The position numbers and the translations under genes were made by a program. From the NCBI GenBank assembly GCA_021802125.1, contig JAKAAX010000007.1, forward strand, positions 8,983 to 72,982: a stretch of 64,000 nt of DNA. Reading direction: 5' to 3'. Numbering within the stretch: the stretch's first letter is position 1; every line of letters starts with the position of its first letter. This DNA is from Thermoplasmata archaeon (lineage in GTDB: Archaea; Thermoplasmatota; Thermoplasmata; Lutacidiplasmatales; UBA184). This document shows positions 22,103-41,998 of the stretch, in pieces. The notes under the pieces are model-generated. The model worked only from the letters and a program-made list of their open reading frames with translations, was not told where the DNA came from and did no database searches.

Positions 22103-22183
22103 GTCGAGTTCCCCCGCCCATTAAGGGTCGTCAGGTCGTATATCAATGGTTCCGCGCGGCGGGGATCTCTGGGAGCGGCCTCT

Positions 22184-23680: not shown

Positions 23681-23756
23681 GCCTCCCTCCTCCCTCGGAC
23701 CTACGGCGTCGCGGGGAGAGCGGGGTCGGGTCCCAACCGAACGAATCCTCCGTCCA

Positions 23757-24482
23757 TCAGCCCTCCGAGATCGGGGGACCGAGCTTGAGGTACAGTCGCT
23801 TGTTCTTCGCGCCCTTGTTCTCCAGGCTCAGGAGCGAGACCGTCCCCACCTCCTTCGAGGAGCGGACATGGGTGCCCCCGTCGGCCTGGACGTCGAAGCC
23901 CTGGATGTCGATGAGCCGAACCTCCTGCACGTCCGGCAGGAGCTCGCGCGCCACCCGGACGAGCGAGGGGTCCTTCATCGCCTCCTCTCGAGGAAGGAAG
24001 CGGACCGCGATGGGAAGGTCCCTCTCGACCACACGGTTCATCTCGGCGACCACACCGTCCGCGACCTCCCGGTTGAGCTCGGGCAGGGAGAGGTCCATCC
24101 GCGCGCGGTCGGGGTAGATCTGGCCCCCGGTGATCCCGCTGCCGAACCGGTGGAAGACCACGCCGCTCAGGATGTGCAGGCAGGTGTGGTAGCGCATGTG
24201 GGCGTAACGGAGGGGCCAGTCGATGCTCCCGTGCACGAGCGCGCCCTCGGAAAGAGGGGTTCCCTCGACCACGTGGACGATCGCGCCCTCGCGCTTCTCG
24301 ACCCGGTTGACCCGGAGCGTGCTCCCGTCCGGGCCCCGCAGCGTCCCCACGTCCGAGGGCTGGCCCCCTCCGGCGGGATAGAAGACCGTGGAGTCGAGCT
24401 CCACCTCCCCGGGGCGTGAGACGGTGACCTTCGAGTCCGCTTCCCGGGCGTAGGCGTCACGCAGGTACAGCCCCCGGGTCAT
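23757..24482 (-). CDS. alaX: Alanyl-tRNA editing protein AlaX (trans-editing of mischarged tRNA-Ala).
   Basis: Track ORF, 241 aa. It has the zinc motifs HTCLH and DVQADGGTHV, and the overall AlaX-M layout. Confidence 0.85.
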   Translation of the reverse strand: MTRGLYLRDAYAREADSKVTVSRPGEVELDSTVFYPAGGGQPSDVGTLRGPDGSTLRVNRVEKREGAIVHVVEGTPLSEGALVHGSIDWPLRYAHMRYHTCLHILSGVVFHRFGSGITGGQIYPDRARMDLSLPELNREVADGVVAEMNRVVERDLPIAVRFLPREEAMKDPSLVRVARELLPDVQEVRLIDIQGFDVQADGGTHVRSSKEVGTVSLLSLENKGAKNKRLYLKLGPPISEG

Positions 24483-24577
24483 CGGCGCCCCCCAGGTCCC
24501 TTGCCGTGCATAGAGCTAGGGGGGAGGTCATGTTCGCGATTGGAAAGCCTTCTACAGGGCGTCCTCCTCGCCCCCTC

Positions 24578-25288
24578 ATGGCCGAGATCCTCCCAGGGGT
24601 CCACTTGGTGGAAGGCGTCAGCCCGAGCCCGGATTTCACGACGAACATCCTCCTCCTGAAGGACAAGAAGGGGGGCAGCTGGACCCTCCTCGACACGGGA
24701 CTGCCCCCGGGGAAGGCCCCCACCGACGTGGCGGCGCAGATCGAGAGGTACGGGCAGCAGCACGGCATCCCGCTCTCCTCCGTCAAGAACATCGTCATCA
24801 CCCATCTCCACGCGGACCACACCGGGAACCTGAAGGCCCTCCAGGCCAAGACCGGGGCCAAGGTGTTCGCGCACTGGATCGAGGCGGCCTACATCGAGGG
24901 GGACCCTCCCTACAAGGGCCCCGGGATGCCTCCGCCGGACCGGGTGCAGATCACCGAGAAGGTCCGCGACCACACCGAGCTCGACCTGTTCGATGGGCTC
25001 GTCGCGCTCTACACCCCGGGCCACACGCCCGGCCACACCACGTACTACTGCCCCTCCCGGAAGATCCTCTTCGCGGGCGACTCGGTGTTCAACATGGGCG
25101 GAACGTTCGAGGTGAGCGCGAAGGACTACACCTTCTCGCAGTCGATGGCCGTCATCTCCCTGCGCAGGCTCGCCACGCTCGACGTCGAGAGCGTGATCAT
25201 GTACCACGGCGCCCCGGTGCTGAAGGGGGGCGCGGCCCACCTGAAGGCGGCCGCGAAGAAGGGGTACGGGTCCACCCCCGAGAACTAG
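24578..25288 (+). CDS. MBL-fold metallo-hydrolase.
   Basis: Track ORF 24506..25288. I prefer the internal ATG at 24578 (MAEILPGVHLVEG), which leaves a divergent promoter gap to alaX. Motifs are ITHLHADHTGN and YTPGHTPGH. Confidence 0.8.
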   Translation: MAEILPGVHLVEGVSPSPDFTTNILLLKDKKGGSWTLLDTGLPPGKAPTDVAAQIERYGQQHGIPLSSVKNIVITHLHADHTGNLKALQAKTGAKVFAHWIEAAYIEGDPPYKGPGMPPPDRVQITEKVRDHTELDLFDGLVALYTPGHTPGHTTYYCPSRKILFAGDSVFNMGGTFEVSAKDYTFSQSMAVISLRRLATLDVESVIMYHGAPVLKGGAAHLKAAAKKGYGSTPEN

Positions 25289-25309
25289 ACCCGGGCCCTC
25301 CCTCGGGGC

Positions 25310-26884
25310 TCAGGAGAACAGGTCCGGCACCCGCGCGTCGATCTCGACGTTGAGGAGCGTGGGCCCGCTCGCGTCGCGGAGCTCCTCGAGCGCGCCCTCG
25401 AGCTCCCCGGCCCCGCCCACGCTGCGGCCCTTCACCCCGAGAGCGGCCGCGAGCCCCACCACGTCCAGCGCGGGGATCTGCATCGACTCGGCGTCGACGA
25501 GGGGAGGGTGGTAGGCCTTCGAGTAGCTGCGGAGGATCGCGTAACCGTGGTTGTTCAGCACGAGGACCTTCACGGGGATGTTGTAGCGCTTGAGCGTCCA
25601 GAGCGCCTGGGGAGCGTACATGAGCGCTCCGTCCCCGATGACGACGAGGGTCTTCTCGCGGCGTAGTCCGATGCCCAGGGAGGCGGCGAGCCCCCACCCG
25701 AGCTGTCCGCTGCGGTAGCCGAAGTAGCTGTCCTTCCCGTGGTAGAACCCGGTGGCCTTGAGGATCGGGGTGTTGGAGATGGCCTCGTCGACCACGGTGT
25801 AACCCTGGAAGACCTTCCGGACGAGGTCGAGGACGAACTCGCCCCCCATCGTCGTCCGGGCCCGCGCGATCCGGTTCGCCCGGGAGAAGTCCCTCGGGTG
25901 TCGGTACTCGCGGCCCCGGTCCCGCACCCCCTCCGCGAGCCTCTTCAGGAGCTCTCGAGGGTCCCCGACCGCCGCCTGGGGCGACAGCTTCTCGGCGACC
26001 CCGGGGTCGGACCCGACGTAGAGCACGTTCTTACCGGCGAGGATCGCCGCGGGGAAGTACGGGTAGACGATGAGGTCCGCACCGACCAGGAGGACGGTGT
26101 CGTAGGGCGTGAGCATCTGGTTGATCATGACGCTCGCCGGGAGCAGGTCACCGGCGTAGCTCGCGAGACCCGAGGGCACCGGGGACCGGGACGTGAGGGG
26201 CTCGACGAAGACGGGGGCGCCCAGCTTTCGCGAGAGCGCGGCGAGCTCATCGAAGGCCTCGAACGCGTCGACCTCGTACCCGGCGACGATGGCCGGACGC
26301 GCGGCCTTGTCGAGGGCACCCGCGACCGCCTTGACCGCGCTCTCCGGCGTCGGGGGCGCGCGGCCGGGGTCCGGAGCGGGGACGGGCGCGCCGTCCCACG
26401 GCTCCTCCATGAGGTTCATCGGAAGGCTCAGCAGGACCGGTCCCCACGGCGGGGTCGACGCGATCGTCCAGGCCCGGCGGAGGGCCCCCTCGACGTCCCC
26501 GACCTTCGAGATCTCGGTGGCCCATTTGACACGGCCCTGCACCCAGTCGGGGAACGGACCGTAGAGGAGAGGCTTCTGGTCGTAGTGCCGCTGGTCCTGC
26601 TGCCCGACGGTGACGATGACCGGGGAGCGGTTCCGGTAGGCGCTGTCGAGGTACCCCATGGCGTTGCCCAGGCCCGGGGCCGCGTGCAGGTTCACGACGC
26701 TCGGGCGGCGGTCGACCTGGGCGAGGCCGTCCGCGGCCCCCATCGCGATGCCGTCCTGGAGGGTGAGGAGGTAGCGCTGCGGGATGTCCTCGAGGAAGGG
26801 AAGTTCTGTCGTGCCCGGGTTCCCGAACATCTCCTTCGCGCCCCACGCGTAGAGCGCGTCGGCGATGGCCCGGGCGACCTTCAC
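25310..26884 (-). CDS. Thiamine-diphosphate-dependent enzyme (benzoylformate decarboxylase / acetolactate synthase superfamily).
   Basis: This is the lower part of track ORF 25310..28081. GTG start at 26884 (VKVARAIADALYAWG) overlaps the upstream stop in GTGA. The TPP motif is VIGDGALMYAPQALWTLKRYNIPVKVLVLNNHGY. Confidence 0.85.
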   Translation of the reverse strand: MKVARAIADALYAWGAKEMFGNPGTTELPFLEDIPQRYLLTLQDGIAMGAADGLAQVDRRPSVVNLHAAPGLGNAMGYLDSAYRNRSPVIVTVGQQDQRHYDQKPLLYGPFPDWVQGRVKWATEISKVGDVEGALRRAWTIASTPPWGPVLLSLPMNLMEEPWDGAPVPAPDPGRAPPTPESAVKAVAGALDKAARPAIVAGYEVDAFEAFDELAALSRKLGAPVFVEPLTSRSPVPSGLASYAGDLLPASVMINQMLTPYDTVLLVGADLIVYPYFPAAILAGKNVLYVGSDPGVAEKLSPQAAVGDPRELLKRLAEGVRDRGREYRHPRDFSRANRIARARTTMGGEFVLDLVRKVFQGYTVVDEAISNTPILKATGFYHGKDSYFGYRSGQLGWGLAASLGIGLRREKTLVVIGDGALMYAPQALWTLKRYNIPVKVLVLNNHGYAILRSYSKAYHPPLVDAESMQIPALDVVGLAAALGVKGRSVGGAGELEGALEELRDASGPTLLNVEIDARVPDLFS

Positions 26885-27825
26885 GCCTTCACCTCGTAGA
26901 GAGGGTCCTTTCCCGAAGCGAAGCGGAGCACGTTGCGGAGCGCCTCGGTGAGGAGACGGTCCTGCGCCTCCAGCGTAACCCCGGCGCTGTGGGGCGTGAA
27001 GACCGTGGCGGGGAACTTGAACAGCTCGTCCGAGAAGTCCGGCGGTTCCTGGGGGTAGACGTCGAGCGCGGCGCGGATCCTTCCCTTCGCGAGCTCGGCC
27101 TTGAGGGCGGGCAGGTCGACCAGCTCCGACCGGGACGTGTTCACGAGGATCGCATCGTCCTTCATCGAGGCGATCTCCTTGGCGCCCAGGATCCCCTTCG
27201 TCTCGGAGGACAGCGGGAGATGGAGGGAGACGATGTCCGAGGCGGCGAAGAGCTCGGGGAGCTCGACGTAGGTGAGTCCGAGGGTGCGCTCCTCTTCCTC
27301 CTTCAGGCGGAACTTGTCGTAGTAGATGGTGGAGACCTCGAACGGGATGAGGCGTTTGGCGACCTCCCGCCCGATCCGTCCCGACCCGACGATGCCGAAG
27401 ACCTTGCCCGCGAGGTCGTGGCCCGCCGTGAGGGGTGGCCAGAAACCCTCCCGCATCCCCTTGTCGATGGTGGTCACGTCCCGTAGGAGCGCGAGGACGA
27501 CCATGATCACGTGCTCCGCGACGCTCTTCGCGTTCGCGCCCTGCACGTTGGAGACCCGGATCCCGCGCTTCTGGCATTCCTCCAGAGGCACGTTGTTGTA
27601 ACCGGTCCCGGCCACCTGCAGGAACCGGAGCTTTGGGAAGCTGTCGAGGTCCTTGACCTCGACCGGCGTGAACGGCGTGAGCGCGATGATCTCCACCTCC
27701 GAGGGGGACCCTGCGGAGGTGTCCAGAAGGTCGCTCACGACCTGCACCCCCGGAACGACCGCGAGAAGGCGGCTCTTGACCATGTCGACGTCGACGAACG
27801 AGGGTACGACCGCGCGGACCTTCAT
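26881..27825 (-). CDS. D-isomer-specific 2-hydroxyacid dehydrogenase, NAD-binding.
   Basis: Track ORF, 314 aa. It has the GIVGSGRIGREVA Rossmann motif and the conserved R..E..H-type C-terminal half (TPHSAG). Confidence 0.85.
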   Translation of the reverse strand: MKVRAVVPSFVDVDMVKSRLLAVVPGVQVVSDLLDTSAGSPSEVEIIALTPFTPVEVKDLDSFPKLRFLQVAGTGYNNVPLEECQKRGIRVSNVQGANAKSVAEHVIMVVLALLRDVTTIDKGMREGFWPPLTAGHDLAGKVFGIVGSGRIGREVAKRLIPFEVSTIYYDKFRLKEEEERTLGLTYVELPELFAASDIVSLHLPLSSETKGILGAKEIASMKDDAILVNTSRSELVDLPALKAELAKGRIRAALDVYPQEPPDFSDELFKFPATVFTPHSAGVTLEAQDRLLTEALRNVLRFASGKDPLYEVKA

Positions 27826-28249
27826 CGGTTCCGGCCGACAGGATCAGATTAGATGAACCTGTGCCCGGGAGGGAAGCCTCCGCGGACCCGAGACGCGTCC
27901 CGTCTCCCCCCTGACCCCTCACGGACGACGGGCGCTGCCCACCGATCCCACATCCCGCAGGGATGGCGATGGAGCCTTTCGGCACGAGAGCGTTGCCCCC
28001 TCCACCCAGGGCCGCTCCCTGACGACAGCGGAGACCGCCCATTCCGTGACCGCGAGCGAGACGCCGCCTGAGCGCCGCCATCCCCGCCCGGTCCTTCGAG
28101 GGCGCGGTGCGTGCCCTCTTCTATCTGATGCGCTCTCAGTAACCTTCTCGCCCCTGGGGTGCACCGACGATGCTCAGCCTTGCCGGTCGGCGCGTCCGGA
28201 CCTCCGGGCCAAGCATGATCGCGCACGGACCTTCGGAAGGAACTCGCAG

Positions 28250-29521
28250 ATGACGAACGGGTCCTCTCCAGAGAGCCTAGCGGGAGGGATGCCTCCGGGC
28301 CCCGAGTTCCGGGAGAGGACCCGGGGCCCCTTTCGCCGCATGGCCTACGTCCTGGCGGTGACCTCCTTCGGGGCGGGGCTTCCCACGCCCCTCTACGCGA
28401 CCTACCAGCAGCAGTTCGGCTTCTCCTCCACCGTCCTGGCCGAGGTCTTCGCCACCTACACGCTGGGCGTCCTTCTCACGATGTTCCTGCTGGCCCCCCA
28501 GATCGACCTCGTCGGGACGCGCCCGGTGCTGTACGTCGGCATGGTGCTGACGGCGCTCTCCGGTGTGGTCTTCATCTTCTCGACGAACGCCCCGATGCTG
28601 GCGGCGGCGCGCTTGGTCTCGGGCCTCGCGGTGGGGGCCACCACGAGCACCGCGACGGTGGCGATGACCCACCGCGAGCCGAGGGCGGACCAGCACCACG
28701 TGGCGCGCGTGGCGGTCGGCGCGAACTTCGGGGGGGTGGCCTGTGGGATCTTCCTGGGAGGCGTGTCGGTGGCCCTCCTCCCGGACCCGAGACACGAGGT
28801 CTTCCTGTTCCTCATCGCCGCCTCCCTGCTGGGGATCCTCGCCATCCGGATCTCCCCGCCCCATCCGCATCCGGAGAGGGGCCGTGGGGCACGGATCGAA
28901 CGGGTCTCCGTCCCGCGCGGGATACGGGGGCCCTTCTGGGTGGCGGTCGGGGGGCTCATGGCCTGCTACGCGATCTACGGGTTCTTCGCGTCCCTCGCCC
29001 CGACCGCGGTGGAGCACGCGATGCGCGTCTCCGGCTCGCTCGCGGCCGTCTTCGTGGCGGTGATGTTCGCCTCTGCGGCACTCGTCCAGATGTTCTTGGG
29101 GAAGCTTCGCGACCGGAACGCGCTGCTCCTCGGGCTGCCCTTGCTTGCGGCCTCCCTCGTCCTCTTCGTCCTCGCGCTCCCGTTCGCCTCGATCCCGCTC
29201 ATGCTCCTGGCGGGCACGCTCATGGGGATCGGGGTGGGCTGCGTCTACATGGGCAGCGTGACCCTGGTCGACCGGGTCACCCCGGAGAGCATGGGAGGAG
29301 AGGTCCTTTCCGGCTTCTACGTGGCCGGGTACCTGGCCCTCGCCGTGCCCACGCTCGGACTGGGCCTCGTCGCGGACAGTCTCGGGGTGGTCGCCTCCGG
29401 CTCGATCTTTGGGCTCGCCCTCGGGGCGTTCGTCATTCTGACCTACTTCGCGACACGCCGTACCCCCCTTCCGCCGGGGGGGGAGGGACGGCCGCTACCG
29501 ACCAGCTGGGGAGCGACCTAG
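28250..29521 (+). CDS. MFS transporter.
   Basis: Internal ATG (MTNGSSPESL) of track ORF 28046..29521. About 12 hydrophobic segments follow. The upstream part of the ORF is low-complexity. Confidence 0.75.
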   Translation: MTNGSSPESLAGGMPPGPEFRERTRGPFRRMAYVLAVTSFGAGLPTPLYATYQQQFGFSSTVLAEVFATYTLGVLLTMFLLAPQIDLVGTRPVLYVGMVLTALSGVVFIFSTNAPMLAAARLVSGLAVGATTSTATVAMTHREPRADQHHVARVAVGANFGGVACGIFLGGVSVALLPDPRHEVFLFLIAASLLGILAIRISPPHPHPERGRGARIERVSVPRGIRGPFWVAVGGLMACYAIYGFFASLAPTAVEHAMRVSGSLAAVFVAVMFASAALVQMFLGKLRDRNALLLGLPLLAASLVLFVLALPFASIPLMLLAGTLMGIGVGCVYMGSVTLVDRVTPESMGGEVLSGFYVAGYLALAVPTLGLGLVADSLGVVASGSIFGLALGAFVILTYFATRRTPLPPGGEGRPLPTSWGAT

Positions 29522-29569
29522 CGCGCCCACCCGCCGACCATCTTGCACCTGGCGGCCGCGTCCGCGCTC

Positions 29570-29992
29570 TCACCGCAGGAACGGGCCCAAGACCAGCAGT
29601 CCGAAGAGGAGCAGCGCCAGCACCGTGCCGCTGACCAGCGCCATCTCCCGCTCCTCGTTGTGAAGGAAGTACCAGCATCCCGTGAGGACCCGCCCCAGAG
29701 GAGTGACCACGAGGACCAGAACCCCGAGGGTCAGGTAGGCCTGCGGGTGGCCCGAGACGATGCCCCGGCCCAGGGCGGCCGGGGACAGGTATCCGGAGAT
29801 CGGGTTCGTTCCGAGCAGCACGCTGAGCTGAGCGGTCGGATGCTGGGCGAAGAACATCACCAGGGCTCCGAGGAGGAAGGCGGAAGCGATGAGGAGACCG
29901 GCCCGGAGCACCCAGGACATCAGGACGTACGCCTCGGCAGGAAGCTCACGGTAATGCGAGAGGGGCACGGCAGGGGGCGTTTCCGAGCTCAT
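29570..29992 (-). CDS. DUF1634-type small membrane protein (usual partner of TauE/SafE exporters).
   Basis: Track ORF, 140 aa with 4 TM segments. Its ATG overlaps the upstream TauE stop (ATGA at 29989-29992). Confidence 0.7.
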   Translation of the reverse strand: MSSETPPAVPLSHYRELPAEAYVLMSWVLRAGLLIASAFLLGALVMFFAQHPTAQLSVLLGTNPISGYLSPAALGRGIVSGHPQAYLTLGVLVLVVTPLGRVLTGCWYFLHNEEREMALVSGTVLALLLFGLLVLGPFLR

Positions 29993-30858
29993 GCCAGTCC
30001 CAACCCCCGAAGGATGATCTCCACCGCCAGGACGATGAGGATCGTGAGGAAGACCCCCTGGACCACACGGCTGCTGAGCCCAGGGAAGAGCCAGCTACCG
30101 ACGAACGAGCCCGCGGCGGTCCCGAGTGCGACGGGGGCCGCAATGACCGGATCGATGTAGCCGGCCGATAGCAGAACCCCGGAGGTCGCTGCGACCGTGA
30201 CGCCGATCATGAAGTTGCTGGTCGCGGTGGCCACTTTGATGGGCAGCCCCAGGTAGCGCTCCAGCGCCTGGACCTTCAGCACCCCGCTGCCGATCCCGAA
30301 CAGCCCGGAGACCAGCCCTGCCGCGAACATCACGCCGAGGGCCGGGGTGGTCCTGCCCGCGTTGTAGGGCACCTCCCGATGAAGGTGGAGGTCGAAGTAG
30401 CTGCCCGAGAGACCGAGCCGCTTCGACCGGTCGTCGGGCACCGCGGGTCCGGTCGTGCCCTCCCGCACCTTTCGAAGATTACCCGGGACCGAAGCCAGGA
30501 GCACGAGGCCCAGGCCCACCAGCAGGAGCGAGACCAGGTTCGAGCGAGCGAGGAAGATCGTCGCCGTGGCGCCGATCAGCGCCCCGGGGACCGTCGCGAT
30601 CTCCAGGAACATGCCGATGCGAAGGTCCGTCAGGCGGTCCTTCACGTAGGCGGACCCAGTGGCCGCCGAGGTCGCAAGGACGCTGATGGCGCTCGCGCCC
30701 ACCGCATCGACGAAGGGGACCTGGAAGAACACGACCAGGACCGGGACGATCACGACCCCGCCACCTAGGCCGGCGAGCGAGCCCAGGAATCCCGCGGCTA
30801 TGGCCACGAGAACGAGCATCAGGATGGTCAGTACGAGCGACAACGAGAGCGGAGTCAC
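29989..30858 (-). CDS. TauE/SafE-family anion (sulfite/sulfonate) exporter.
   Basis: Track ORF, 289 aa. It has the duplicated 4-TM halves with GFLGSLAGLGGGVVIVP and GLVSGLFGIGSGVL motifs. Confidence 0.85.
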   Translation of the reverse strand: MTPLSLSLVLTILMLVLVAIAAGFLGSLAGLGGGVVIVPVLVVFFQVPFVDAVGASAISVLATSAATGSAYVKDRLTDLRIGMFLEIATVPGALIGATATIFLARSNLVSLLLVGLGLVLLASVPGNLRKVREGTTGPAVPDDRSKRLGLSGSYFDLHLHREVPYNAGRTTPALGVMFAAGLVSGLFGIGSGVLKVQALERYLGLPIKVATATSNFMIGVTVAATSGVLLSAGYIDPVIAAPVALGTAAGSFVGSWLFPGLSSRVVQGVFLTILIVLAVEIILRGLGLA

Positions 30859-31064
30859 CGAGGCGGATAAGGCAAACCGAGCGCGCGGGCAGAGCGTGCG
30901 AGCGAGGTGGGGAGGAACCGCAGTCGAGCGCGCCGCTCCCGACTCGCGGAGGGCGGGAGCCCGAGCGAAGGGCAGCGAAGGGGGGAGGTGGCGGCTGCGG
31001 CGGGACCCCAGGCGCCTCGCGCGGACGAGCCAGATTCATCAAGGAAGTTCACCGTGGGTTTTGC

Positions 31065-32393
31065 GTGCCCTTCTGGAGGAGGAACCAGGACCCACGCCCA
31101 CGACGGGCGTCAACGCAGGGGCAGAATGCCCCGGTTCGCGGGCAACTTGCGACGGGACCGACGAGCCTTGTGGGGCTTGGGGCAGCCTTGCTCGGACGAG
31201 ACCTGGGTCGAGCCTTGGGGGTCACCACCGCCGACTACCTGGAGGTGAGGGGTCGCCGAAGTACCGTTGTGTCCGTCTTGCACCAGCCGGGGGCACCTCC
31301 CCCAAGCGAGGGCTCCCTCGAAGTCGAGCCGGTGGTCATGAGGAACGCCGGGGCAACGGTCGGGGAGGTGGTCGAGCTTCGGAGGGTCGAGCCCCCCTTG
31401 GCCGAGCAGCTCACGATTGCGCCCGTGTATGACGGCCATCCGAAGATGGACCTTGGTGCCGGGCTCGAAGCCTTCGTAGCGAAGGCCCTGGCCCGCAGAT
31501 CGTTCGTCCAGGGAGACGCCTTCGTCGTACGCGGGGTCTTCCTCATGGGGGGCTCCCTGCTCTTCCTCTGTACGGACTCCACTCCGGCGGGTGCGGTGAG
31601 GGTGGGGCCGAGCACTCTGGTCACGATCTCGCAGGAAACCTTCCCTGAGTCTCTCCTCGAAGTGGAAGGCGTTCCGACCCACCAAGGGCAGCCCGATCTC
31701 CCCGAACTGAACGGGGGTCCCAAGCTGGCGAAAGAACTGACGGGCGCGCTCCGAGCCTATCATCTCCGGGCCCAGAACTGCGGTCCCCCGGTACGGGATC
31801 CCGCCCTTTCCTGGTGGGAGGATAGCCAGAGGGTGATCCGCGACGTCCTGCGCTACCTTGACGCGGAGGCGAAGTGGCGGGAGGCGAACGAGCAGTGGGA
31901 GCAGGAGCACCCGAAGCCGCCTTACACCCCGGGGTCCGAGGACGCATGGCTCGCCCGGATGGCGGCTCGTGAAGAGTGGGAGCGCACGCATCCCGACCCT
32001 AGAGAATCGCCTGACCACATGCGACCCCGAGGCCTCGCCCTCAGAGAGATGCAGGCGTGGGCCCTTTCCAACCCTCCGCCCACACTCCGCGGGACAAAAT
32101 TCGACCAGGAAATAGCCGCAAGGTTGAGCCATGCCCTGTTGGCCTCCGCCCGTTTCACGCTAGAGGACCATGTCTGGCACGAGAACTACGCGACGTGGAA
32201 GAACGAACACCCCAACCCCCCTCTTCCACCGAAGGCGCCAGCTTCGGCCACTCGAGAATGGGAGGTGGCCCGGCACGCTTGGGAGAGCGCCCACCCCCAC
32301 CCAGGGGAGACACCGGAGGAACGGAGCGAACGGAAGCGGCTCTTTGCCGATTGTGAGGCGCTCTGGGCGCGCCTCTCTGATCTGTACCCCTAG
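31065..32393 (+). CDS. Stand-alone CDC48/VAT N-terminal domain protein (double-psi barrel plus beta-clam) fused to a C-terminal W-x6-7-W-E-x2-HP-x-P repeat domain. No AAA ATPase module.
   Basis: Track ORF, 442 aa, GTG start. LEVEPVVMRNAGATVGEVVELRRVEPPLAEQLTIAPV...LEAFVAKALARRSFVQGDAFVV...LLFLCTDSTPAGAVRVGPSTLVTI aligns by eye to VAT-N (IVRIDSVMRNNCGASIGDKVKVRKV...VTLAPI...IEEYVQRALIRRPM...LLFKVVKTLP). The C-terminal repeats are KWREANEQWEQEHPKP, AWLARMAAREEWERTHPDP, VWHENYATWKNEHPNP and EWEVARHAWESAHPHP. Confidence 0.75.
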   Translation: MPFWRRNQDPRPRRASTQGQNAPVRGQLATGPTSLVGLGAALLGRDLGRALGVTTADYLEVRGRRSTVVSVLHQPGAPPPSEGSLEVEPVVMRNAGATVGEVVELRRVEPPLAEQLTIAPVYDGHPKMDLGAGLEAFVAKALARRSFVQGDAFVVRGVFLMGGSLLFLCTDSTPAGAVRVGPSTLVTISQETFPESLLEVEGVPTHQGQPDLPELNGGPKLAKELTGALRAYHLRAQNCGPPVRDPALSWWEDSQRVIRDVLRYLDAEAKWREANEQWEQEHPKPPYTPGSEDAWLARMAAREEWERTHPDPRESPDHMRPRGLALREMQAWALSNPPPTLRGTKFDQEIAARLSHALLASARFTLEDHVWHENYATWKNEHPNPPLPPKAPASATREWEVARHAWESAHPHPGETPEERSERKRLFADCEALWARLSDLYP

Positions 32394-32691
32394 TTCGCGC
32401 TCGGGACTCGGCTTCCCTCAATGCCCTCAGTTAGGCGAGACCGACGACCGCCCGCTCACGGATTCGCGGGCGGGAGGACCCGTCCGAGAACGGGAGGCAG
32501 ATGGGCCGTTCGAGGTAGGACCGTCCGAGCCGGGGGCCCTCCCCGGCGAGGCAGGTCCGGTTCATCGGGGTGTGGGAGGCCAGCGAAGGAGCCTCGATGG
32601 ATCCCGACCGACCGAAGGAAAGAGGGAGGCGGGGTCGAGCGGCCAACGGTTGACGGGAGCGAATCTATCTACGATCCCCGACCCCCCCTGC

Positions 32692-32922
32692 GTGAATCTT
32701 CCTCCGCTGCCGGGGGCCTTCCCGCCACCCAAGCCGCCCAGCCCCCACCTCCGAGTCTGGAAGGCCGTGCTCGGGATGGGGATTCTCGTGGCAGTCATTG
32801 GTTCGCTCTGGTACTTTTCAGGTGTGGACCAGAACGTCGCCATCGTGGTCACTCTGACCGGGGCGGCACTCTCCTTCCTGCTCGTCCTTCTTGTCCCAGG
32901 TCTCGCTAACGCGAAACTCTAG
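32692..32922 (+). CDS. Possible small 2-TM membrane protein.
   Basis: In-frame GTG inside track ORF 32170..32922. The C-terminal WKAVLGMGILVAVIGSLWYFSG...VVTLTGAALSFLLVLLVPGL forms two clear hydrophobic helices. The start is uncertain. Confidence 0.3.
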   Translation: MNLPPLPGAFPPPKPPSPHLRVWKAVLGMGILVAVIGSLWYFSGVDQNVAIVVTLTGAALSFLLVLLVPGLANAKL

Positions 32923-33471
32923 GAGTTCCCGTAAAGAAGCGGAGGACGGGGCTTTCGCCCCGCCCCCCGCCGTGCCCATGTCTCAGGGACCGAGCACCGC
33001 CATCGAGGCGTTCCGCCCCAGAGAGAGCTGGAGTCTGCCCTTGTACTCCTTGACCCACGCGCCGCAGAGGCGGACGCGCGCCCGATGCGCTTGCGGCCTT
33101 GGAATGATGTCCGCACCAAGGGCATGGCGCGCCAGGTTGGTCGACGAAGCTCCCGCAGCGTGGACACTTCGCGTGGGTCTTGCCGCTTGCCCAAATGATA
33201 GGACCGAGACCCGCGAACCGCAGGGATAGCCCAGGAAGGCGACGGCTTGGAGACCAACTGGCGCAGAAGGCGCGTTCGGGCGGGCGTGGCAGTTGAACAC
33301 CGGGCCGATGGCCTATGCCCCAGGAAGCATTGCGACGCTCGAGAACATGGTCCCGAAACCCACCTTCGACCACAACGCACCCTGTTGGACCACCGGTCGC
33401 CGAGTAGGGCGGACATTTTCGCGCAGCATACGAAGAAATACCACGCGGATCGTCCCACGCGAGGAAGGAGC

Positions 33472-33777
33472 ATGGCCTCGCCAGAGGGACGGATCGAGCC
33501 TGTAGTGACGAAATGCCCCCGGTGCTCGGGGCCACTACAGTACGGATTCCTCGCTTCCCAGGGTCGATTGAACTGGGTGGAACATCTTGGAGGGATGATG
33601 GACGTGTCTCCGTTCAGAGGGACCACGCTCATCCCATTGCCTGTGCACGCGCCGCATTTTCGAGGGTGGATGTGCGCCCCCTGCGGCCTCCTGATCGTCG
33701 ATTACGGGAGCGGAATCCTCTACGCGAACAAGGAGACCATCGCGCGGTACGATCCGGACAATAGTTCCAGCCAGTAA
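33472..33777 (+). CDS. Small zinc-ribbon protein (CPRC ... CAPC).
   Basis: Internal ATG of track ORF 33247..33777, preceded by gaggaaggag. The sequence is MASPEGRIEPVVTKCPRCSGPLQYGFL...GWMCAPCGLLIVDY. Third-position G/C is visibly lower than in the core genes. Confidence 0.5.
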   Translation: MASPEGRIEPVVTKCPRCSGPLQYGFLASQGRLNWVEHLGGMMDVSPFRGTTLIPLPVHAPHFRGWMCAPCGLLIVDYGSGILYANKETIARYDPDNSSSQ

Positions 33778-35180
33778 CCGCGCGCGAGAACGGACCCCAA
33801 TCGGTCCGAGAAACCCGCCTCACCAGAAACAAGCCGATAGCTGCGGCACGGGTTTCTCGGGAGGACTCTTCGCGAGCTTGCGAGGGATGAGTCCGAGCCG
33901 AAGGATGCACCTCACGGTGAAACCGACCAAGAGACCGGGGCATGCATCCCTCGGGACGACTCGGCCTCCACGCCCCTGGCCCCCGCCTCACTCCCAGGCC
34001 GAATCGGAACCCCGGCAGAACGGCCTGCCTCGCGGGCCCGGACCTCGGAGAGGGGATCGCAGAATGACCGGAGGATCTCGGACACGGGCTTGACGTGGAT
34101 GACGCTGAAGTCCCGATTGGGACGCGATCAGGGGCCCTGGTCGAGACCCGCGAGCACATCTTGTTGCAGCTCTCGCAATAGGAGGCGTTCCGCACCCGTC
34201 GGGGCCTATGGTAGGGTGGCGGCAGGAGGGGCACGGGGGCTCAGGGCCCCCGGGACCTCACGGTCCTGTATCGCCGAGTCGACCATCCGGTTCTGAATCT
34301 TAGCAGCGGAGGTCCTCGCCATCCTCCGCCGAGGTGCAGGGTACGACAAAGAGCGGCCACGTGGGCCCCAGAGCGGCCCATGGTCCGCGCGAGCCCCTTG
34401 GGGGGGTCACCGAGACGGACGATGCTGCATCGGGTTCCGGCGCCGCCGAGCGGCGATCCGCCTCTGGCGTGCGAGGTGGGCCCGCTTCTTGTTGGCGGCA
34501 GACCGTCGCCGGATGACTCCCGATGCCATGTTGCTCCACCGACCTTGCGAGGGCCGCGCCAGGCGTCCTAGGGTATAACGCTCTCGAATGGGGGACCCCT
34601 CGAAGATGAGGCAAGCTCGACCCCTCCCGCAACCAGGGGAACCCACCGGTGTCCGACGAGACGGTGCCCCGGGAGGACCGATGCGCCAGCCTCTTCCCCC
34701 TCCGGGGAGGAGGCCGGCGCAACGCCGGGGAAGGGGGGGCCACGCCCGCGCCTCCCCCGAACCTCCACCGAGCCAGGTAGGATCGCGCGCTCGCGCGCTC
34801 TCACCTCCCCGCGAGGTAGTCGCGCGGGGAGCGCAGGACCTCAGCCGCATCCTCAACGTGAAGGGGGGGCGGAAACCGTTGTGGTCACCCCTGCACCCCC
34901 CGCACCGCGTCACAACGGGGGACGTGTCCCCCGCGTGGGGGGAGATGTCCGAGGACGCGTGACGGCTCGTCGCTTGGCCGACGTGGATTGGCACGCTCCG
35001 GCCCTTCTGCCTTCCACGAGCCCGCAGCAGGGCATGGTCGAAGGTCGCACGGGGCCGGCCCTGGCCGAGGGGACCGCGGACGGGACGAGGCCCTTCTCCC
35101 GGAGGGCGCTGCCGGCCGCCCACCGCACCGAGCCGCGATCCGGACCGGGGGTCGCTAGGTCCTGGGGCTCAGCCCCGGGC

Positions 35181-37271
35181 TCACGCGGCGGGCGGTGGAG
35201 GTGGGGGAGGGGGAGGGGCAGAGGTCGGCGGAGGGGCCGACGCGGGGGTGGGTGCCGCCGGGGTCGAGCTCGGCGGTCGGCGGCCCTTGATCATACGGTA
35301 TCCCATGTAGCCCCCAACCCCGGCCACCGCCACGACCACGATCCCCGCCAACAGGTACGGCGGGGAGCTGCCTCCCGACCCGGAGCTCGAAGGCGGGGAG
35401 GGCTTCACGATGGTCACCGTGAAGGTGGTGTGCGAGATCCAACCGTACTGGCTCGCGTTCGCGTAGACCGTTACCGTTCCGGCCATCGCCAGGGCGGTCA
35501 GGTTCACCAAGGGCCCGCTGGTGACGTTGAGCGTGGCCAGGGAGGAGGGCCGGATCGCCCACTGGTAGACGACCCCGTTGCTGGGATAGAGGGCGGCCCC
35601 GGACATGTCCTGAGCGTGGGCGGTCAGGAGGGCGCTCTGATTGAAGTCGATCGTGGCCGACGGGGCCGCGGACACGCTCACGCTGTTGAGCGTGGAGTTC
35701 GTGCAAACCGCCTGGGCGGTGTAGAAGGTGGTCCACCCTGAGGCGCCGCCCCCGGGCTGGTTCTCGAACATCGCGTCCACGTACTGGCCCTGAGCGGAGA
35801 CCACGAGGAAGTTAGGGAGCTCGTTCGAGGCGTTCACCGGACCGATGGGCTGATAGTTCCAGGCATGGGTGGTGACGTTGTAGGTGGAGACGGCCGGCTG
35901 GGCCGTGCTCGCGGAGGGGTCGAAGAGCGCTTCGTCGCCGAAGGTGACGCCGCAGGGGCCGTAGGTAGCGCCGGTGGTGTCGTAAACCGCGCTTCCCGGG
36001 TTGATCTCGTTGAGCGTGGTGTTCTGCCAGCTCGAGGCCTTTCCCCAGACCGTCGTGAGGGCGCTAAAGCCGTTCGCCCCGCCGGTGATCCCGAGCGAGG
36101 AGGCGTTCTGAACGCCCAGGAAAGTGGTGCCGTCCCCGAGCATGAGCGCCGGGAGCCCGCCCCCGACGTTCGGGGTCGCCACGACGGATTCGAAGGTGGC
36201 TTCCAGGTCGGGGACGCCGCCCCCCACCGAGGAGGACCAGGTGGTGTTGCCGTTAGAGAGCACCGTCCCCGTGTACTGGGCGATGTCCACCTGGGGGAAC
36301 CCCCCAGGGGTCGTGTCGGCCCGGACGAACGCGAGGTCTACGCCCGAGGCTCCCGTGAGGATCTGAGGAAGATGGGCGTTCACCGCCGGCGCATTGGCGG
36401 GCTCGCCGCAGCAGATGTCGTTCGCGTCGGGGATCGAGACCTGCCAGGGGGCGGACGCCGTGCCCCCCGGGGTGGTCGGGAGGGCGGAGAGGGGGATGCC
36501 GACGACCCAGAGCACCGAGGCGGCCGCATTCAGGCTCCACAGGGGAGGGCCCCCCGAGAACGTGATGAGGAGGGTGGCGTTGTTCGCCACGGCGGCCGAG
36601 AGGCTAGCCGGGGAGACGCAACAGCCTCCCGGGTTGTGGAACCCCGGCGGCTCGGCGACCACGTTCACCCAGGGTCCGTTCAGGTTCCCGGTGGGGTCGT
36701 AGATGACCGAGACCCCGTTGGAAAGGTCGTTCCACAGGCTGTCGTCGCCCGTGGAGAGGTAAGCGATGAACGAGACGAGCTTGCCGTTCCAGGATCCCGT
36801 TGTCACCCAGCACCCCGGGCCTCCGTTGCTCGTGCCCGCGGTCAGGGGCGTTCCGATCTGCGTCGCGGTCCAGGGACCGCTCTGGTTCGTCAGGAGGTAG
36901 AGGTTCCCGCCGGCCCCGTTCGAGTAGTTCATGTAGCAGGTGTAGGCCGCGGTCCCCTGGGTCATCAGGTTCCCCACGGAGTCCCGGTATCCGTTGCTGA
37001 GCCCCAGCACGGCCTGAGGCGGAGAGATCCACCGTAGGTGGTACGGCGCAGGCGCAGCCGAGGGTGACAGAGGCATCCCCGAAACCTGGCTGGGGGCGAG
37101 CGTGGTCGGATGGCTGGGGGTGGAGACGGAGAGGCCGCCCGGAAGTGTGCGCGATCCGGCCACCACTAGCGTGAAGAGGACGAGGGCTAGGCCCAGTTGC
37201 AGAGCGAGAGACGTCCGAGGAGATGCGACGGGCGGAGGGAAAACTCGGGAGGCGGCGTTCCTCGGATCCAT
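35181..37271 (-). CDS. Cell-surface (S-layer-like) glycoprotein candidate. It has an N-terminal signal/anchor helix, a large beta-rich ectodomain with many N-x-S/T sequons, a C-terminal TM anchor and a poly-Pro tail.
   Basis: Track ORF, 696 aa. N-terminus: SLALQLGLALVLFTLVVAG. About 15 or more sequons (NYS, NQS, NAT, NTT, NAS, NVT, NST, NLT). C-terminus: YLLAGIVVVAVAGVGGYMGY-RMIKGRR-PPSSTPAAPTPASAPPPTSAPPPPPPPPPAA. Confidence 0.75.
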   Translation of the reverse strand: MDPRNAASRVFPPPVASPRTSLALQLGLALVLFTLVVAGSRTLPGGLSVSTPSHPTTLAPSQVSGMPLSPSAAPAPYHLRWISPPQAVLGLSNGYRDSVGNLMTQGTAAYTCYMNYSNGAGGNLYLLTNQSGPWTATQIGTPLTAGTSNGGPGCWVTTGSWNGKLVSFIAYLSTGDDSLWNDLSNGVSVIYDPTGNLNGPWVNVVAEPPGFHNPGGCCVSPASLSAAVANNATLLITFSGGPPLWSLNAAASVLWVVGIPLSALPTTPGGTASAPWQVSIPDANDICCGEPANAPAVNAHLPQILTGASGVDLAFVRADTTPGGFPQVDIAQYTGTVLSNGNTTWSSSVGGGVPDLEATFESVVATPNVGGGLPALMLGDGTTFLGVQNASSLGITGGANGFSALTTVWGKASSWQNTTLNEINPGSAVYDTTGATYGPCGVTFGDEALFDPSASTAQPAVSTYNVTTHAWNYQPIGPVNASNELPNFLVVSAQGQYVDAMFENQPGGGASGWTTFYTAQAVCTNSTLNSVSVSAAPSATIDFNQSALLTAHAQDMSGAALYPSNGVVYQWAIRPSSLATLNVTSGPLVNLTALAMAGTVTVYANASQYGWISHTTFTVTIVKPSPPSSSGSGGSSPPYLLAGIVVVAVAGVGGYMGYRMIKGRRPPSSTPAAPTPASAPPPTSAPPPPPPPPPAA

Positions 37272-37866
37272 GGTGTTGTTCTCCCGACGGTGGCCCCGAA
37301 CCGGACCCGAGAATCGGCCCTCCGGCGAACTCTTCAGGTGGTTGGTGCCCCGTCGTATCTGAACACAAATTGCGATAGCTTCTACATAAAAGACGCGGCG
37401 CTATTCACCCGCATTCGGAGTCTCCTGGCGCGGGTAAAGTGTGAACGTCGGTTGATGCCTGACGAGCCGGGTCAGGTGACCAGAACCCCTGTCATATACC
37501 TCCCGAGAGCGATCTGGTAGACGCGCGGCCTGGTCTTCCTCAAAAGGAGGTTCGAGACCATGTTGGCGAGCCCGCTCCCCAGTGGGACCAGCACCTCTTG
37601 CAGCGGTGGGCTGCCCCGTTCTTCACGAACCTTCGGGAACCATCCTAGAGGAGAACCTTCTCTAGGTCGTAGACGAGGTCGGCCTCTCGACGCAGGATCA
37701 CCCCCACGACGTCGTCCCGAGCCGGGATCTGCGCCTGGTCGATCAGTTGGTCAAGGTCGGTCCGCTCGCCGGTTTCGGTCTCAGGGATCTCCTCCTCCAG
37801 TGGGGTTTGGCGGCCCGTCAGGCCAGGCGGTCCCCTCACATCAACCCGCATTCACACAGGACTGCG

Positions 37867-38163
37867 TCAGGCCGACCACGGCAGCTTCCGCGGCCGCCGG
37901 GGATGGGCGCGCGGCCGCTTCCAGATTCGCGTGAACACGACCGCCGTCCCGACCACCCTGTAGAAGACGCGGTACTCTCCCAGGTGGAACCGAAGCTTCC
38001 CGGGATGCCGCGGGCCTTGCTGGACGCGCAGCCAGGGGTAGGACTTGTAGGGATTCCGGAGGAGATAGACGAGCTTCTCCTGGAAGAGGACTTGGAGACG
38101 GTGCGGGAGCTCTTGGAACTCCCGGTCGGCGCTCTCGAGGAACTCGACGTCGTACGGGGTCAC
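37867..38163 (-). CDS. RelE/ParE-family type II toxin.
   Basis: Track ORF 37867..38220, trimmed to the GTG at 38163, which overlaps the antitoxin stop (GTGA). VTPYDVEFLESADREFQELP...LLRNPY...LRFHLGEYRVFYRVVGTAVVFTRIWKR fits the RelE/ParE fold pattern. Confidence 0.75.
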   Translation of the reverse strand: MTPYDVEFLESADREFQELPHRLQVLFQEKLVYLLRNPYKSYPWLRVQQGPRHPGKLRFHLGEYRVFYRVVGTAVVFTRIWKRPRAHPRRPRKLPWSA

Positions 38164-38384
38164 ACGAGTCCTGCCTTGGCGAGGACCTTGGCGCCGGGGA
38201 CGCGCTTCTCGTGGGTCCACCGCCGCTCGATCTCAGCGTAGAAAGCGTGATCGAGGTAGGACTCCTCCAGGAGGTCCTGGATGACCTCGTCGAAGCTCTC
38301 GCCCGACCCCTTCACGGCCCCCAGCAGCCGGCGCGTGCGCTCGGTGACCGTGATCGTTGTCGGGCGTTCGAGGACGGCAGGCAC
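38160..38384 (-). CDS. Antitoxin, archaeal VapB-like/PF02697-type (small RHH-like).
   Basis: This is the C-terminal 74 codons of track ORF 38160..38741, from the in-frame GTG at 38384. TITVTERTRRLLGAVKGSGESFDEVIQDLLEE matches the T-I-x-V-x-x-x-x-Y/R-x-x-L...G-E-S-F-S/D-x-V-I pattern. The upstream 119 codons are P/A/S low-complexity with clearly lower third-position G/C. Confidence 0.65.
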   Translation of the reverse strand: MPAVLERPTTITVTERTRRLLGAVKGSGESFDEVIQDLLEESYLDHAFYAEIERRWTHEKRVPGAKVLAKAGLV

Positions 38385-38761
38385 GACAGGACAATTGTCG
38401 CCAATTGACAGAAGGGTTGTCGCGGACCGTGCCCCTCCCGGCCTGCGCGTTTGGGGAGGGCCCAGCCGCTCCCACGGCCCCAGAAGAGCCAACGGGGCCG
38501 CAGAGGGGCCGCAGGGTCGAGGCGAGGAGCGGGGGGCAGGCACCGCTACGAGGGAGGCCTCGTCCCCGGAGGGCGAAGCCCGAGGGGATGCGGCCGGAAC
38601 GGGAGGCTCAGGAGCCTTCGGTGGAGGCGCCGGAAGGGCACTCGCGGGAGTGAAGCCAGTCGAGCGAACGTCCCCACCGTTCGACGGAGCGGAGTTGGCG
38701 ACCGAGACGTTGTCCCCTTTCCCCTTGTGAACCCACGTCAAGCATACGCATTAATTCATGA

Positions 38762-38834
38762 TGGGCCCGGTCGGACTCGAACCGACGACCAACCGGTTAT
38801 GAGCCGGACGCTCTAGCCACTAAGCTACGGGCCC
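38762..38834 (-). tRNA. tRNA with CAT anticodon (elongator Met, or Ile2 if C34 is modified).
   Basis: The reverse complement is GGGCCCGTAGCTTAGTGGCTAGAGCGTCCGGCTCATAACCGGTTGGTCGTCGGTTCGAGTCCGACCGGGCCCA. It has a 7-bp acceptor stem, the T-arm GTCGG-TTCGAGT-CCGAC and the anticodon loop CTCATAA. No CCA is encoded. Confidence 0.9.
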
Positions 38835-38898
38835 TGCGACGCCGGAGGAGGGCCCATCCATTTCAATGCGTGGTACGCTCGCGAACGTGAGCCCCCGC

Positions 38899-39393
38899 TC
38901 AGCGGTGCAGGGCCAGGCGCTCCCGGCCCTGCGCCGTCTCTTCCCCGACGGCTACAGGCTCTTCGACCTGTGGCCTTGGGCGGAAACCCCGGGAGACCGC
39001 CAGTTGGACCAGGTCCGCGTGGTCCTTGCCCAGGCCCTCCCACTCGGGGTAGGCCTCCAGTCGCGCGAGCTTCGGTCTCCCATCCCGGACGGAGAAGAGG
39101 AGGGCGTGCACGGCGAAGTGAGGGGTGCCTTCCAGCCGATAGAGCGTCCTGACCACGTACAGCGAGGGCTGGGAACGGATGTTCCAGATGGCCCGGGTCC
39201 CTTCCGTGCGGCTCTCCGCGAGCTTCTCCCCCGTGCACTCGAGCTCATGGAACGCCGAGCCGTCGGAGGAGAACGGACCGATCGCGAGTCGGAGCGAGGT
39301 CTTGGGCCGGGCGCTCGGGGAACCGGGCTTGGGTCGGTCGGAGGGGCTGGTCATGAGCTCACCCGTTCCCCCGACCGGAGCGAGCAGCATCAA
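38899..39393 (-). CDS. Hypothetical protein.
   Basis: Track ORF, 164 aa. Third-position G/C is very high and the composition is protein-like (YVVRTLYRLEGTPHFAVHALLFSVRDGRPKLARLEAYPEWEGLGKDHADLV). The start may be the ATG at 39354 (MTSPSD). No family recognised. Confidence 0.55.
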   Translation of the reverse strand: MMLLAPVGGTGELMTSPSDRPKPGSPSARPKTSLRLAIGPFSSDGSAFHELECTGEKLAESRTEGTRAIWNIRSQPSLYVVRTLYRLEGTPHFAVHALLFSVRDGRPKLARLEAYPEWEGLGKDHADLVQLAVSRGFRPRPQVEEPVAVGEETAQGRERLALHR

Positions 39394-41102: not shown

Positions 41103-41998
41103 TCGTAGAGCCCCGCGAGGCGTCGTCGGTATCGGTCGGAGAGCACCTGGACCACGATATTGATGGCGAGCACGATCACGATGAGCAGGAACGCGGCCTG
41201 GAAGGCCAGCGCGAGGAAGGACCCGAAGGAGCGCGGGAAGTCGTAGAACGCCCAGATGCCTCCGGTGAGGAAGGAGGTCGGCTGCATCAGGCTCTGGACC
41301 GGGGTCGAGCTCCACCCGGCGGTGTAGACGAGAGGCGCGGCCTCTCCAAGTCCCAGGGCCATCGCAAAGAACACCCCGGTGAAGATGGTCGGGAACGCGA
41401 TCGGGAAGGCGACCCGGCGAAGGTACTGGAGGCGGCTGGACCCCAGCGCCAGGGAGGCCTCCCGTTGGCTCGGAGGAACGTTCGACAGCGCGATGTCGGT
41501 GGTTCGGAAGATGTACGGGAGCATGAACACGCCCAGGATGATCCCTCCGGCGAGGGTCGTGAACCCCCAGTGGGTGTAGAGGACGAGGGCGTAGTACCCG
41601 AAGTATCCCAGGACGATCGCCGGGATGCCCGCGAGCACGTTGCCGGCAAGCCGGGCGATCCGCTTGACGGCCGGCGGGGCGAACTCCGCGGTGTAGAAGC
41701 CCGCCGAGATCCCGAGGGCGCCGGCGATCCCCGTGCCCAGGGTGATGAGGACGAGCGTCCCCCAGATCATGGCGTAGAGACCTCCGCCCGTGCCCACCTG
41801 GTTCTGGGTGAGCGTGGCCCATGACATGGTGGGGAGGGCGTAGCTCGCGACCCACCCGATGAGGTCGAAGAGAGGGAAGAACACGGCCGCGAAGGCGAGC
41901 AGGAGCACCCAGCCGATGACCCGGTCGAAGAGGATCCTTCGCCGCATGCGTCCGGAGGTGTGGGTGAGCTCGTCCCCCAGCCCCGTCGTCACCTTCAT
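41099..41998 (-). CDS. pstA: Phosphate ABC transporter permease PstA.
   Basis: Lower part of track ORF 41099..43168, from the ATG at 41998 (ATGA overlap with the pstC stop). [10 protein letters not shown]..., 6 TM segments, EAA-like loop [21 protein letters not shown]. Confidence 0.85.

Follow-up and report, generated by a model that had tools for sequence, protein, structure and literature searches.

A VAT/CDC48-type N-domain fused to a second domain

We analysed a gene of a Thermoplasmata archaeon with a GC content of ∼69%, located on contig JAKAAX010000007.1 (assembly GCA_021802125.1). The whole stretch of DNA under study comprises 64,000 nucleotides (nt) and is referred to here as the window. 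The gene is an open reading frame (ORF) of 442 codons plus stop at window positions 31065 to 32393 on the forward strand, opened by a GTG start codon. Its product, of 442 amino acids (aa), joins the N-domain of VAT/CDC48-type ATPases to a helical domain marked by W-x3-H-P-x-P motifs. The features of the gene are listed below by window coordinates, strand, and residues of the protein.

31065..32393, +, complete coding sequence: VAT-N domain, linker, and W/HPxP helical domain; 442 aa
31065..31127, +, basic N-terminal extension, residues 1-21, MPFWRRNQDPRPRRASTQGQN; not in canonical CDC48, MPFW shared with the second fusion protein P0004
31128..31391, +, double-psi beta-barrel subdomain of VAT-N, residues ∼22-109 (Pfam CDC48_N, 1cz4 alignment, Foldseek)
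31392..31655, +, beta-clam subdomain of VAT-N, residues 110-197 (Pfam CDC48_2, VAT alignment to residues 197-203)
31656..31722, +, Pro/Gly/Gln-rich linker, residues 198-219 (pLDDT < 50)
31723..32390, +, new all-alpha domain, residues 220-442 (seven helices; AF2 model and family alignment)
31821..32051, +, internal duplication unit A, residues 253-329 (hhalign)
31896..31919, +, helix cap 1, WEQEHPKP, residues 278-285; W278, H282, and P285 invariant in the family
31977..32000, +, helix cap 2, WERTHPDP, residues 305-312; only W305 invariant
32058..32081, +, helix cap 3, WALSNPPP, residues 332-339; W332, N336, P337, and P339 invariant
32121..32351, +, internal duplication unit B, residues 353-429 (hhalign)
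32196..32219, +, helix cap 4, WKNEHPNP, residues 378-385 (motif match)
32280..32303, +, helix cap 5, WESAHPHP, residues 406-413; W406, H410, P411, and P413 invariant
32382..32390, +, C-terminal L-Y-P, residues 440-442; fits the hydrophobic-Tyr-X (HbYX) pattern, Tyr invariant and always penultimate in the family

The fusion gene is intact, real, and under purifying selection in both halves. Its GC content by codon position (0.71/0.52/0.76) is consistent with coding in this frame, the third-position value (GC3) of 0.76 comparing with 0.86 to 0.95 in the adjoining genes and 0.96 in CDC48. A copy that is ∼92% identical is found on a 2.35-kb Logan contig (L001) and on a contig of a Thermoplasmata metagenome-assembled genome (MAG; L008), with the identical 442-codon frame, the same GTG, and zero indels. 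According to the Nei-Gojobori method, 42.5 of the 90 differences from this orthologue are synonymous, with ∼23 expected under neutrality. The ratio of nonsynonymous to synonymous rates (dN/dS) is 0.36 for the whole gene and 0.32 for both the VAT-N part and the repeat part; it reaches ∼1 across residues 201 to 265, a segment with few sites. A second N-domain fusion, P0004, is 46% identical and likewise exactly 442 aa long, starting with MPFWERK from a TTG codon that lies 8 codons after an in-frame stop. It stems from MAGs at NCBI, where it is annotated as "hypothetical protein [Euryarchaeota archaeon]," and the same locus is present in a contig of "Thermoplasmata archaeon REEB18." Changes between the window protein and the L001 copy in residues 21 to 40 are mostly synonymous. 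Taken together with the equal 442-aa frames of the orthologues and the MPFW start, this means that the start at 31065 is well supported. The gene is present in identical form on 20 contigs from NCBI (GCA_027376595.1), ENA, and Logan assemblies of different samples and by different assemblers, showing that it is not an assembly chimera. Public gene calls start too late and cut into the barrel subdomain: those of the window gene begin at M92 (P0009, 351 aa, no Pfam domain recorded) or at residue 42 (P0010, 401 aa), and those of the 92% relative (among P0009 to P0012) are 403 or 407 aa long. Given these truncations and the missing domain record of the 351-aa call, the fusion is easily missed in current databases.

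In its N-terminal half, the protein carries a full N-domain of the VAT/CDC48 type, which descends from CDC48 paralogues of its own lineage. When we compared the protein with PDB sequences using phmmer, residues 36 to 197 aligned with the nuclear magnetic resonance structure of VAT-N (1cz4, E = 4.1e-16) and residues 37 to 203 with full-length VAT (5g4f, E = 1.3e-15). This bears out the original prediction, made from the sequence by eye, of a double-psi barrel plus beta-clam at residues ∼40 to 215. The Pfam models CDC48_N (PF02359; residues 34 to 109, E = 1.7e-6) and CDC48_2 (PF02933; residues 131 to 191, E = 1.2e-4) reach 28.6 and 22.0 bits, respectively, the former under its gathering threshold of 35.1 and the latter slightly under its threshold of 22.4. 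Despite the subthreshold Pfam score, CDC48_N homology is secure from the phmmer matches to PDB and from Foldseek. In the latter comparison, the barrel of the AF2 model matches double-psi beta-barrel domains of archaeal VCP-like ATPases with TM scores of 0.72 to 0.79 and a probability of 1.00. The full-length AF2 model is poor at residues 110 to 217 (pLDDT < 50) because no more than three aligned sequences cover this part, and the beta-clam assignment therefore rests on sequence. The pLDDT is also below 50 over the basic extension at residues 1 to 21; canonical CDC48 sequences begin right at strand beta1. The linker at residues 198 to 219 is homologous neither to the N-D1 linker nor to AAA.

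Alignment with VAT and with the CDC48 N-domains of related MAGs (P0002, P0003, and P0008) shows that the entire double-psi barrel and beta-clam have been kept. Identity to CDC48 N-domains of related MAGs is 51 to 56%. Relative to the CDC48 of the clade, it amounts to 49 to 55% over residues 36 to 197, 67 to 68% in the beta-clam and 33 to 38% in the barrel, while the barrels of the two fusion proteins are 48% identical to each other. We considered whether the conserved beta-clam is a sign of a retained partner; since canonical CDC48 pairs show the same trend (clam 81% versus barrel 49%), no functional conclusion is drawn from it. Both fusions have derived features in common that are absent in CDC48, namely, the 21-residue basic MPFW extension and a "QLA" where strand 1 of CDC48 has "VAEA," which indicates a single fusion event.

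The features of a CDC48/VAT family ATPase are thus present as far as the N-terminal barrel and clam are concerned, while the D1/D2 AAA+ modules with their Walker A/B motifs are absent. No AAA model of Pfam or NCBIfam matches the 442-aa protein, and NCBIfam TIGR01243 matches with positions 14 to 166 of its 733 only, scoring 44.4 bits against a cutoff of 802.65. A tblastn search of the entire window with the 741-aa CDC48 P0003 returned positions 31143 to 31649 as the sole match, with no AAA remnant, and the region past the stop codon carries no AAA signal. Comparison of the C-domain profile with P0002 and P0003 by hhalign gave probabilities below 0.1%, showing that this domain is unrelated to AAA. 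We therefore place the protein outside the CDC48 ATPase family, and the tblastn and hhalign results rule out a decayed ATPase as the origin of the C-terminal half. The earlier observation that no AAA module follows the N-domain and that no AAA remnant lies downstream withstood these searches, along with the selection analysis. A "GGxK" likeness linking the first D1 helix to the beginning of the C-domain was discarded as well, given that the same helix is kept in stand-alone proteins (see below) and so belongs to the C-domain.

The W/HPxP helical domain and its family

The C-terminal domain is a member of an undescribed family with a confidently predicted fold that has no match among solved structures. 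When modeled by itself from the domain alignment, AF2 yields a pLDDT of 94.5 and a pTM of 0.83, with seven helices at residues 221-237, 241-281, 292-308, 316-335, 345-381, 393-409, and 417-440. Helices 2 to 6 each terminate in W-x3-[H/N]-P-x-P. The stricter form W-x3-H-P-x-P occurs four times in the C-terminal half, whereas at least two copies arose in only 2 of 100,000 shuffles of that half. All five copies of the motif described in the original prediction are present. The copy WALSNPPP, which had been called degenerate, is instead a fifth cap that is kept in every family member and ranks among the best conserved. The description as a repeat of ∼17 aa holds for the presence of the copies and fails for their arrangement, as they do not form a simple array but belong to a duplicated helical-bundle domain of ∼220 aa. 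Aligning the first half of the domain to the second with hhalign gave a probability of 94.6% (E = 7.1e-8, 76 columns), pairing residues 253 to 329 with 353 to 429. This shows that the domain arose when a three-helix unit of ∼80 to 90 aa was duplicated in tandem.

The family alignment contains 34 invariant C-domain columns, including nine Trp and four His. Among the invariant polar residues are Y232, S315, H318, R320, N336, E367, H404, H410, R423, E431, R436, and Y441. The conserved Trp are spaced i/i+7 along the helices, which suggests that they form a stripe lining the core of the helix bundle.

To place this domain among known families, we compared it with profile, sequence, and structure collections. 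There was no match in Pfam, NCBIfam, PADLOC, or PHROGs, none among PDB sequences (best INO80, E = 0.46), and none by Foldseek in PDB or BFVD with E < 0.36 or a TM score > 0.35. The known helical repeat families (TPR, HEAT/ARM, Sel1, PPR, and others) showed no profile or fold match. All six family members, when scanned against Pfam at E ≤ 10, returned only noise in the form of STPRs (E = 9.8) and DinB (E = 0.18). We dismissed these weak matches, i.e., INO80, DinB, STPRs, and phrog_6990 (E = 0.12). The C-terminal part, which had not been recognized at first reading, thus matches none of the families searched, and its all-helical AF2 model is confident and matches no fold of PDB or BFVD in the Foldseek comparison.

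In order to find relatives, we searched residues 205 to 442 against 1.84 billion representative proteins with phmmer, using no word index. This yielded four matches at E ≤ 1e-33 and nothing else below 1e-3. The four clusters, all from high-GC archaeal metagenome contigs, are the 442-aa N-domain fusion P0004 and three stand-alone C-domain proteins, P0005 (229 aa), P0006 (257 aa), and P0007 (249 aa). No N-domain remnant was detected by tblastn upstream of P0005 and P0006, and the P0007 gene lies 36 nt from a divergent upstream gene. The stand-alone proteins show that the C-domain is an autonomous unit of ∼220 residues, corresponding to residues 220 to 442 of the window protein. When the family profile was used in a word-index search, P0006 and P0007 were the sole results; a genome scan gave the two Thermoplasmata MAGs and no others, and searches of JGI metagenome contigs and IMG/VR yielded no further members. 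The family is thus very rare, with five clusters at 90% identity among ∼15 billion proteins, and is so far confined to a small number of high-GC metagenome lineages of Thermoplasmata/Euryarchaeota. The fusion has a solid, unusual architecture and a narrow distribution, and the helical domain defines a new, very rare domain family.

Candidate functions of the fusion protein

The N-domain of CDC48/VAT/p97 is a module that binds substrates and cofactors, and Golbik et al. reportedly found in 1999 that isolated VAT-N binds non-native proteins. Other archaeal N-domains of this type are known as the leading part of CDC48-type machines (PMC3493965). In eukaryotes, the UT3 domain of the Cdc48 cofactor Ufd1 has the architecture of the Cdc48 N-domain, and cofactors dock on the N-domain (PMC4192671). 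Given the Ufd1 precedent and the role of the N-domain as a docking site, we tentatively favor, by analogy, an adaptor reading, in which the fusion is a functional two-domain cytosolic protein that would most likely serve as an ATP-independent, Ufd1-like adaptor in protein quality control. A polypeptide or cofactor would bind to the N-domain, and the helical part would either link it to a partner or offer a second binding surface. The role put forward in the original prediction, a free N-domain serving as adaptor or competitor for CDC48/proteasome substrates with the repeats as binding surface, is likewise plausible from the Ufd1 analogy, and the invariant penultimate Tyr at the C-terminus lends it weak support. 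The leading candidate for this partner would be the α-ring of the 20S proteasome, reached via the C-terminal L-Y-P, and the next would be CDC48 itself. A literature search for archaeal N-domain proteins lacking an ATPase found nothing relevant.

The HbYX pattern docks PAN and CDC48 onto the α-ring of the 20S proteasome. To our knowledge, CDC48/VAT is the only known proteasomal ATPase of Thermoplasmata. The LYP end of the window protein fits the pattern [LVIMGAPFYW][FY]x> and is the sole such end among 33 confident ORFs of the window. Every family member ends exactly one residue past the invariant Tyr (Y441), the last helix running into [L/K/R/M]-Y-[P/G] and then stop, and the canonical 741-aa CDC48 of related MAGs ends in LYR. 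Thermoplasmata do not possess PAN, and their proteasomal ATPase is CDC48/VAT, acting via HbYX (PMC3493965). The invariant penultimate Tyr is thus a weak lead, drawn from sequence, to docking on the 20S proteasome. Extending this, the W/HPxP domain could be a new ATP-independent docking module for the 20S particle, and its fusion to VAT-N a motor-less substrate receptor on the proteasome of archaea without PAN; we regard this specific proposal as unlikely. If true, it would give prokaryotes an equivalent of the Ufd1-type or PA-type adaptors, made from a part of CDC48.

Several observations weigh against such a docking role or against the adaptor reading as a whole. The position of the hydrophobic residue is occupied by L, L, K, R, R, and M in the six members, so that only three of the six conform to strict HbYX, the remainder being KYP, RYP, and RYP. 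The last helix of the AF2 model reaches residue 440 of 442 with a pLDDT of ∼94, which leaves no predicted flexible tail. The terminal x3-Y-P may be nothing more than one further helix cap, the sixth, of the W-x3-H-P kind, and HbYX-type motifs occur by chance in 1 to 4% of archaeal proteins (PMC11475706, PMC3493965). In sequence and fold comparisons, no known proteasome activator or CDC48 cofactor is similar to the C-domain, whose many invariant polar residues would also fit a ligand-binding, metal-binding, or catalytic site. In the genomic context, the window shares no conserved gene neighbor with the locus of P0004 (L002) or with those of the stand-alone proteins, and it contains neither proteasome nor CDC48 genes.

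The last of these points also bear on the chief alternative, namely, that the helical domain has a role of its own outside CDC48 and the proteasome, in metal or small-ligand binding or in catalysis, with VAT-N as a generic peptide-binding module added in one lineage. Such a role would account for the autonomy of the C-domain in three of the five lineages, for the invariant polar residues with their four His, and for the lack of proteasome or CDC48 neighbors, and one member shows the weak match to the DinB family mentioned above. That match is not significant, however, and Foldseek detected no DinB-like or other enzyme fold (best E, 0.36; TM scores of at most 0.30). The established place of this N-domain type at the front of CDC48-type machines in archaea also speaks against a generic module. 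We give this alternative a weight similar to, if slightly below, that of the adaptor reading.

A free N-domain might also act as a decoy or regulator by titrating the substrates or cofactors on which cellular CDC48 depends, and its gene might then belong to a variable genome region linked to conflict. The close similarity of the beta-clam to that of canonical CDC48, the weaker codon bias of the gene relative to its neighbors and to CDC48, the loss of similarity to the 92 to 96% identical relative past position 32484, and the position of P0004 near a PIN/RHH toxin-antitoxin pair and an IS110 transposase are all in line with this idea. It is rather improbable, given that a pure decoy would have no need of a conserved second domain of 220 aa, that PADLOC and PHROGs contain no match and IMG/VR no relative, and that the genes upstream (MFS, DUF1634, TauE) are chromosomal and lie in conserved synteny. 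Almost certainly wrong is the notion that the gene is a chimera created during assembly or a CDC48 pseudogene, be it truncated or in decay, to which one might be led by the adjoining weak-coding stretch (32.4 to 35.1 kb) and by the disagreement of public callers on the start (351 to 407 aa). It is contradicted by purifying selection on both halves, the 442-aa length of the 46%-identical orthologue, the lack of any AAA remnant by tblastn or hhalign, and the recurrence of the identical gene on 20 contigs from different samples and assemblers.

Comparison with known systems helps to delimit the adaptor reading. Mycobacterial Bpa/PafE is helical and ends in GQYL, and PA200/Blm10 carries a C-terminal Tyr motif. 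Like these ATP-independent activators and archaeal PbaB, the fusion is a non-ATPase ending in hydrophobic-Tyr-X; unlike them, it has K/R at the hydrophobic position in half of the family and no predicted flexible tail, and it shares no sequence or fold similarity with them. The homology to the N-domain of VAT/CDC48/p97 (PF02359 plus PF02933; 1cz4) extends across the whole barrel and clam, whereas the D1/D2 modules are missing, a 21-aa basic MPFW extension is added, and the barrel has diverged to the 33 to 38% identity given above, with the G-D of the first psi-loop replaced. With Ufd1, the protein shares its design: a fold of the CDC48-N type that lacks an ATPase precedes a C-terminal part that brings it to a partner (PMC4192671), a role that in the fusion is presumed. 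In contrast to Ufd1, the fusion has an N-domain that branched off recently from archaeal CDC48, its C-terminal part is predicted to be a folded helical domain rather than an unstructured tail with a BS1 motif, and neither an Npl4 partner nor a ubiquitin system is evident. Since the Pfam UFD1 models do not match the 442-aa protein at E ≤ 10, it lies outside the Ufd1 family. The closest N-domains (52 to 56% identity) are those of P0002 and P0008, noncanonical CDC48 proteins of the same clade, which, unlike the fusion, retain the ATPase in cis or immediately downstream and have no helical domain. P0002 (L015, 6001-7428) is a 475-aa protein with the N-domain, a single AAA module, and no HbYX end. 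P0008 (L010, 7088-9313) consists of a 174-aa N-domain ORF and, after 76 nt, a 541-aa AAA-AAA ORF, an arrangement that may be a frameshift or a genuine split of CDC48. Both demonstrate ongoing reshuffling of the N-domain within this lineage. The retention of the recognition domain and the replacement of the motor by a new helical domain suggest that these archaea have accessory ATP-independent components of quality control, comparable to eukaryotic Ufd1.

Genomic context

The fusion gene is bordered by two flanks that are conserved with the close relative.

30949..31064, +, conserved 5' flank, in the block ∼92% identical to L001/L008
32394..32484, +, conserved 3' flank; homology to the close relative stops at 32484

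The 5' flank contains one AT-rich patch, GATTCATCAAGG, ∼25 to 30 nt ahead of the GTG, and is probably the promoter/5' region. While ∼115 nt directly 5' of the start are conserved with the relative, the segment separating TauE from the fusion gene contains an indel or replacement, with 61 nt in the window (30888-30948) versus 294 nt in L008 (8929-9222). Further upstream, the MFS transporter, DUF1634, and TauE genes are syntenic in L008, with 95.7% identity across window positions 21961 to 30887. The 2.35-kb L001 has only positions 30949 to 32484 in common with the window, and its downstream part has no real counterpart there. An initial idea that the gene travels as a mobile cassette was rejected, as the longer L008 shows conserved upstream synteny and only the downstream side is variable.

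This downstream side (32485-35180) has weak coding signal, is absent from the 92 to 96% identical relative (L008/L001), and is treated differently by different gene callers; it may be an insertion or a fast-evolving island. GC content drops to 0.648 at 32001 to 34000, lower than in the surroundings. The segment includes a 48-aa ORF (32776-32922) with two hydrophobic stretches resembling transmembrane helices and a DUF6487 zinc-ribbon ORF (33247-33777; Pfam E = 9e-6). A tblastx comparison of positions 32394 to 38900 with all related loci gave GC-rich noise only. At the nucleotide level, a stretch of ∼87 nt at 33972 to 34058, 1.6 kb downstream of the fusion gene, is 77% identical to L004 3492-3580 and L005 ∼1240-1330 (blastn E = 8e-11) and contains an exact 20-nt core, CGGGCCCGGACCTCGGAGAG. 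It is not a dispersed repeat, and the copies on these two ENA contigs lie immediately upstream of the gene for the stand-alone C-domain protein P0006. Between the variable stretch and a tRNA-Met (38762-38834) sits a 696-aa ORF (35181-37271, −) with a strong coding signal (GC3 0.88) and no Pfam match.

The remaining gene content of the window consists of transporters, kinases, and a phosphate-uptake cluster. Positions 17177 to 19417 (within 14981-19417, +) encode a 746-aa AAA_16 plus TPR protein that resembles STAND NTPases, preceded by a 632-aa ORF (14981-16879) with clear coding signal and no Pfam match. A 54-nt Rfam tRNA match at 48157 to 48210 (−), at 33.3 bits barely above the gathering score, covers model positions 1 to 71 and is not called by ARAGORN; it may represent a fragment of a tRNA, or else an archaeal tRNA with an intron or some other atypical feature. 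Finally, a 709-aa protein (45892-48021, +) combines an MFS/Sugar_tr domain with a C-terminal PhoU_div domain (DUF47), an unusual transporter-regulator fusion. Its gene adjoins the PBP_like_2 and BPD_transp_1 genes of an ABC transporter (41995-44541, −), which may be a phosphate-uptake (Pst-type) system.

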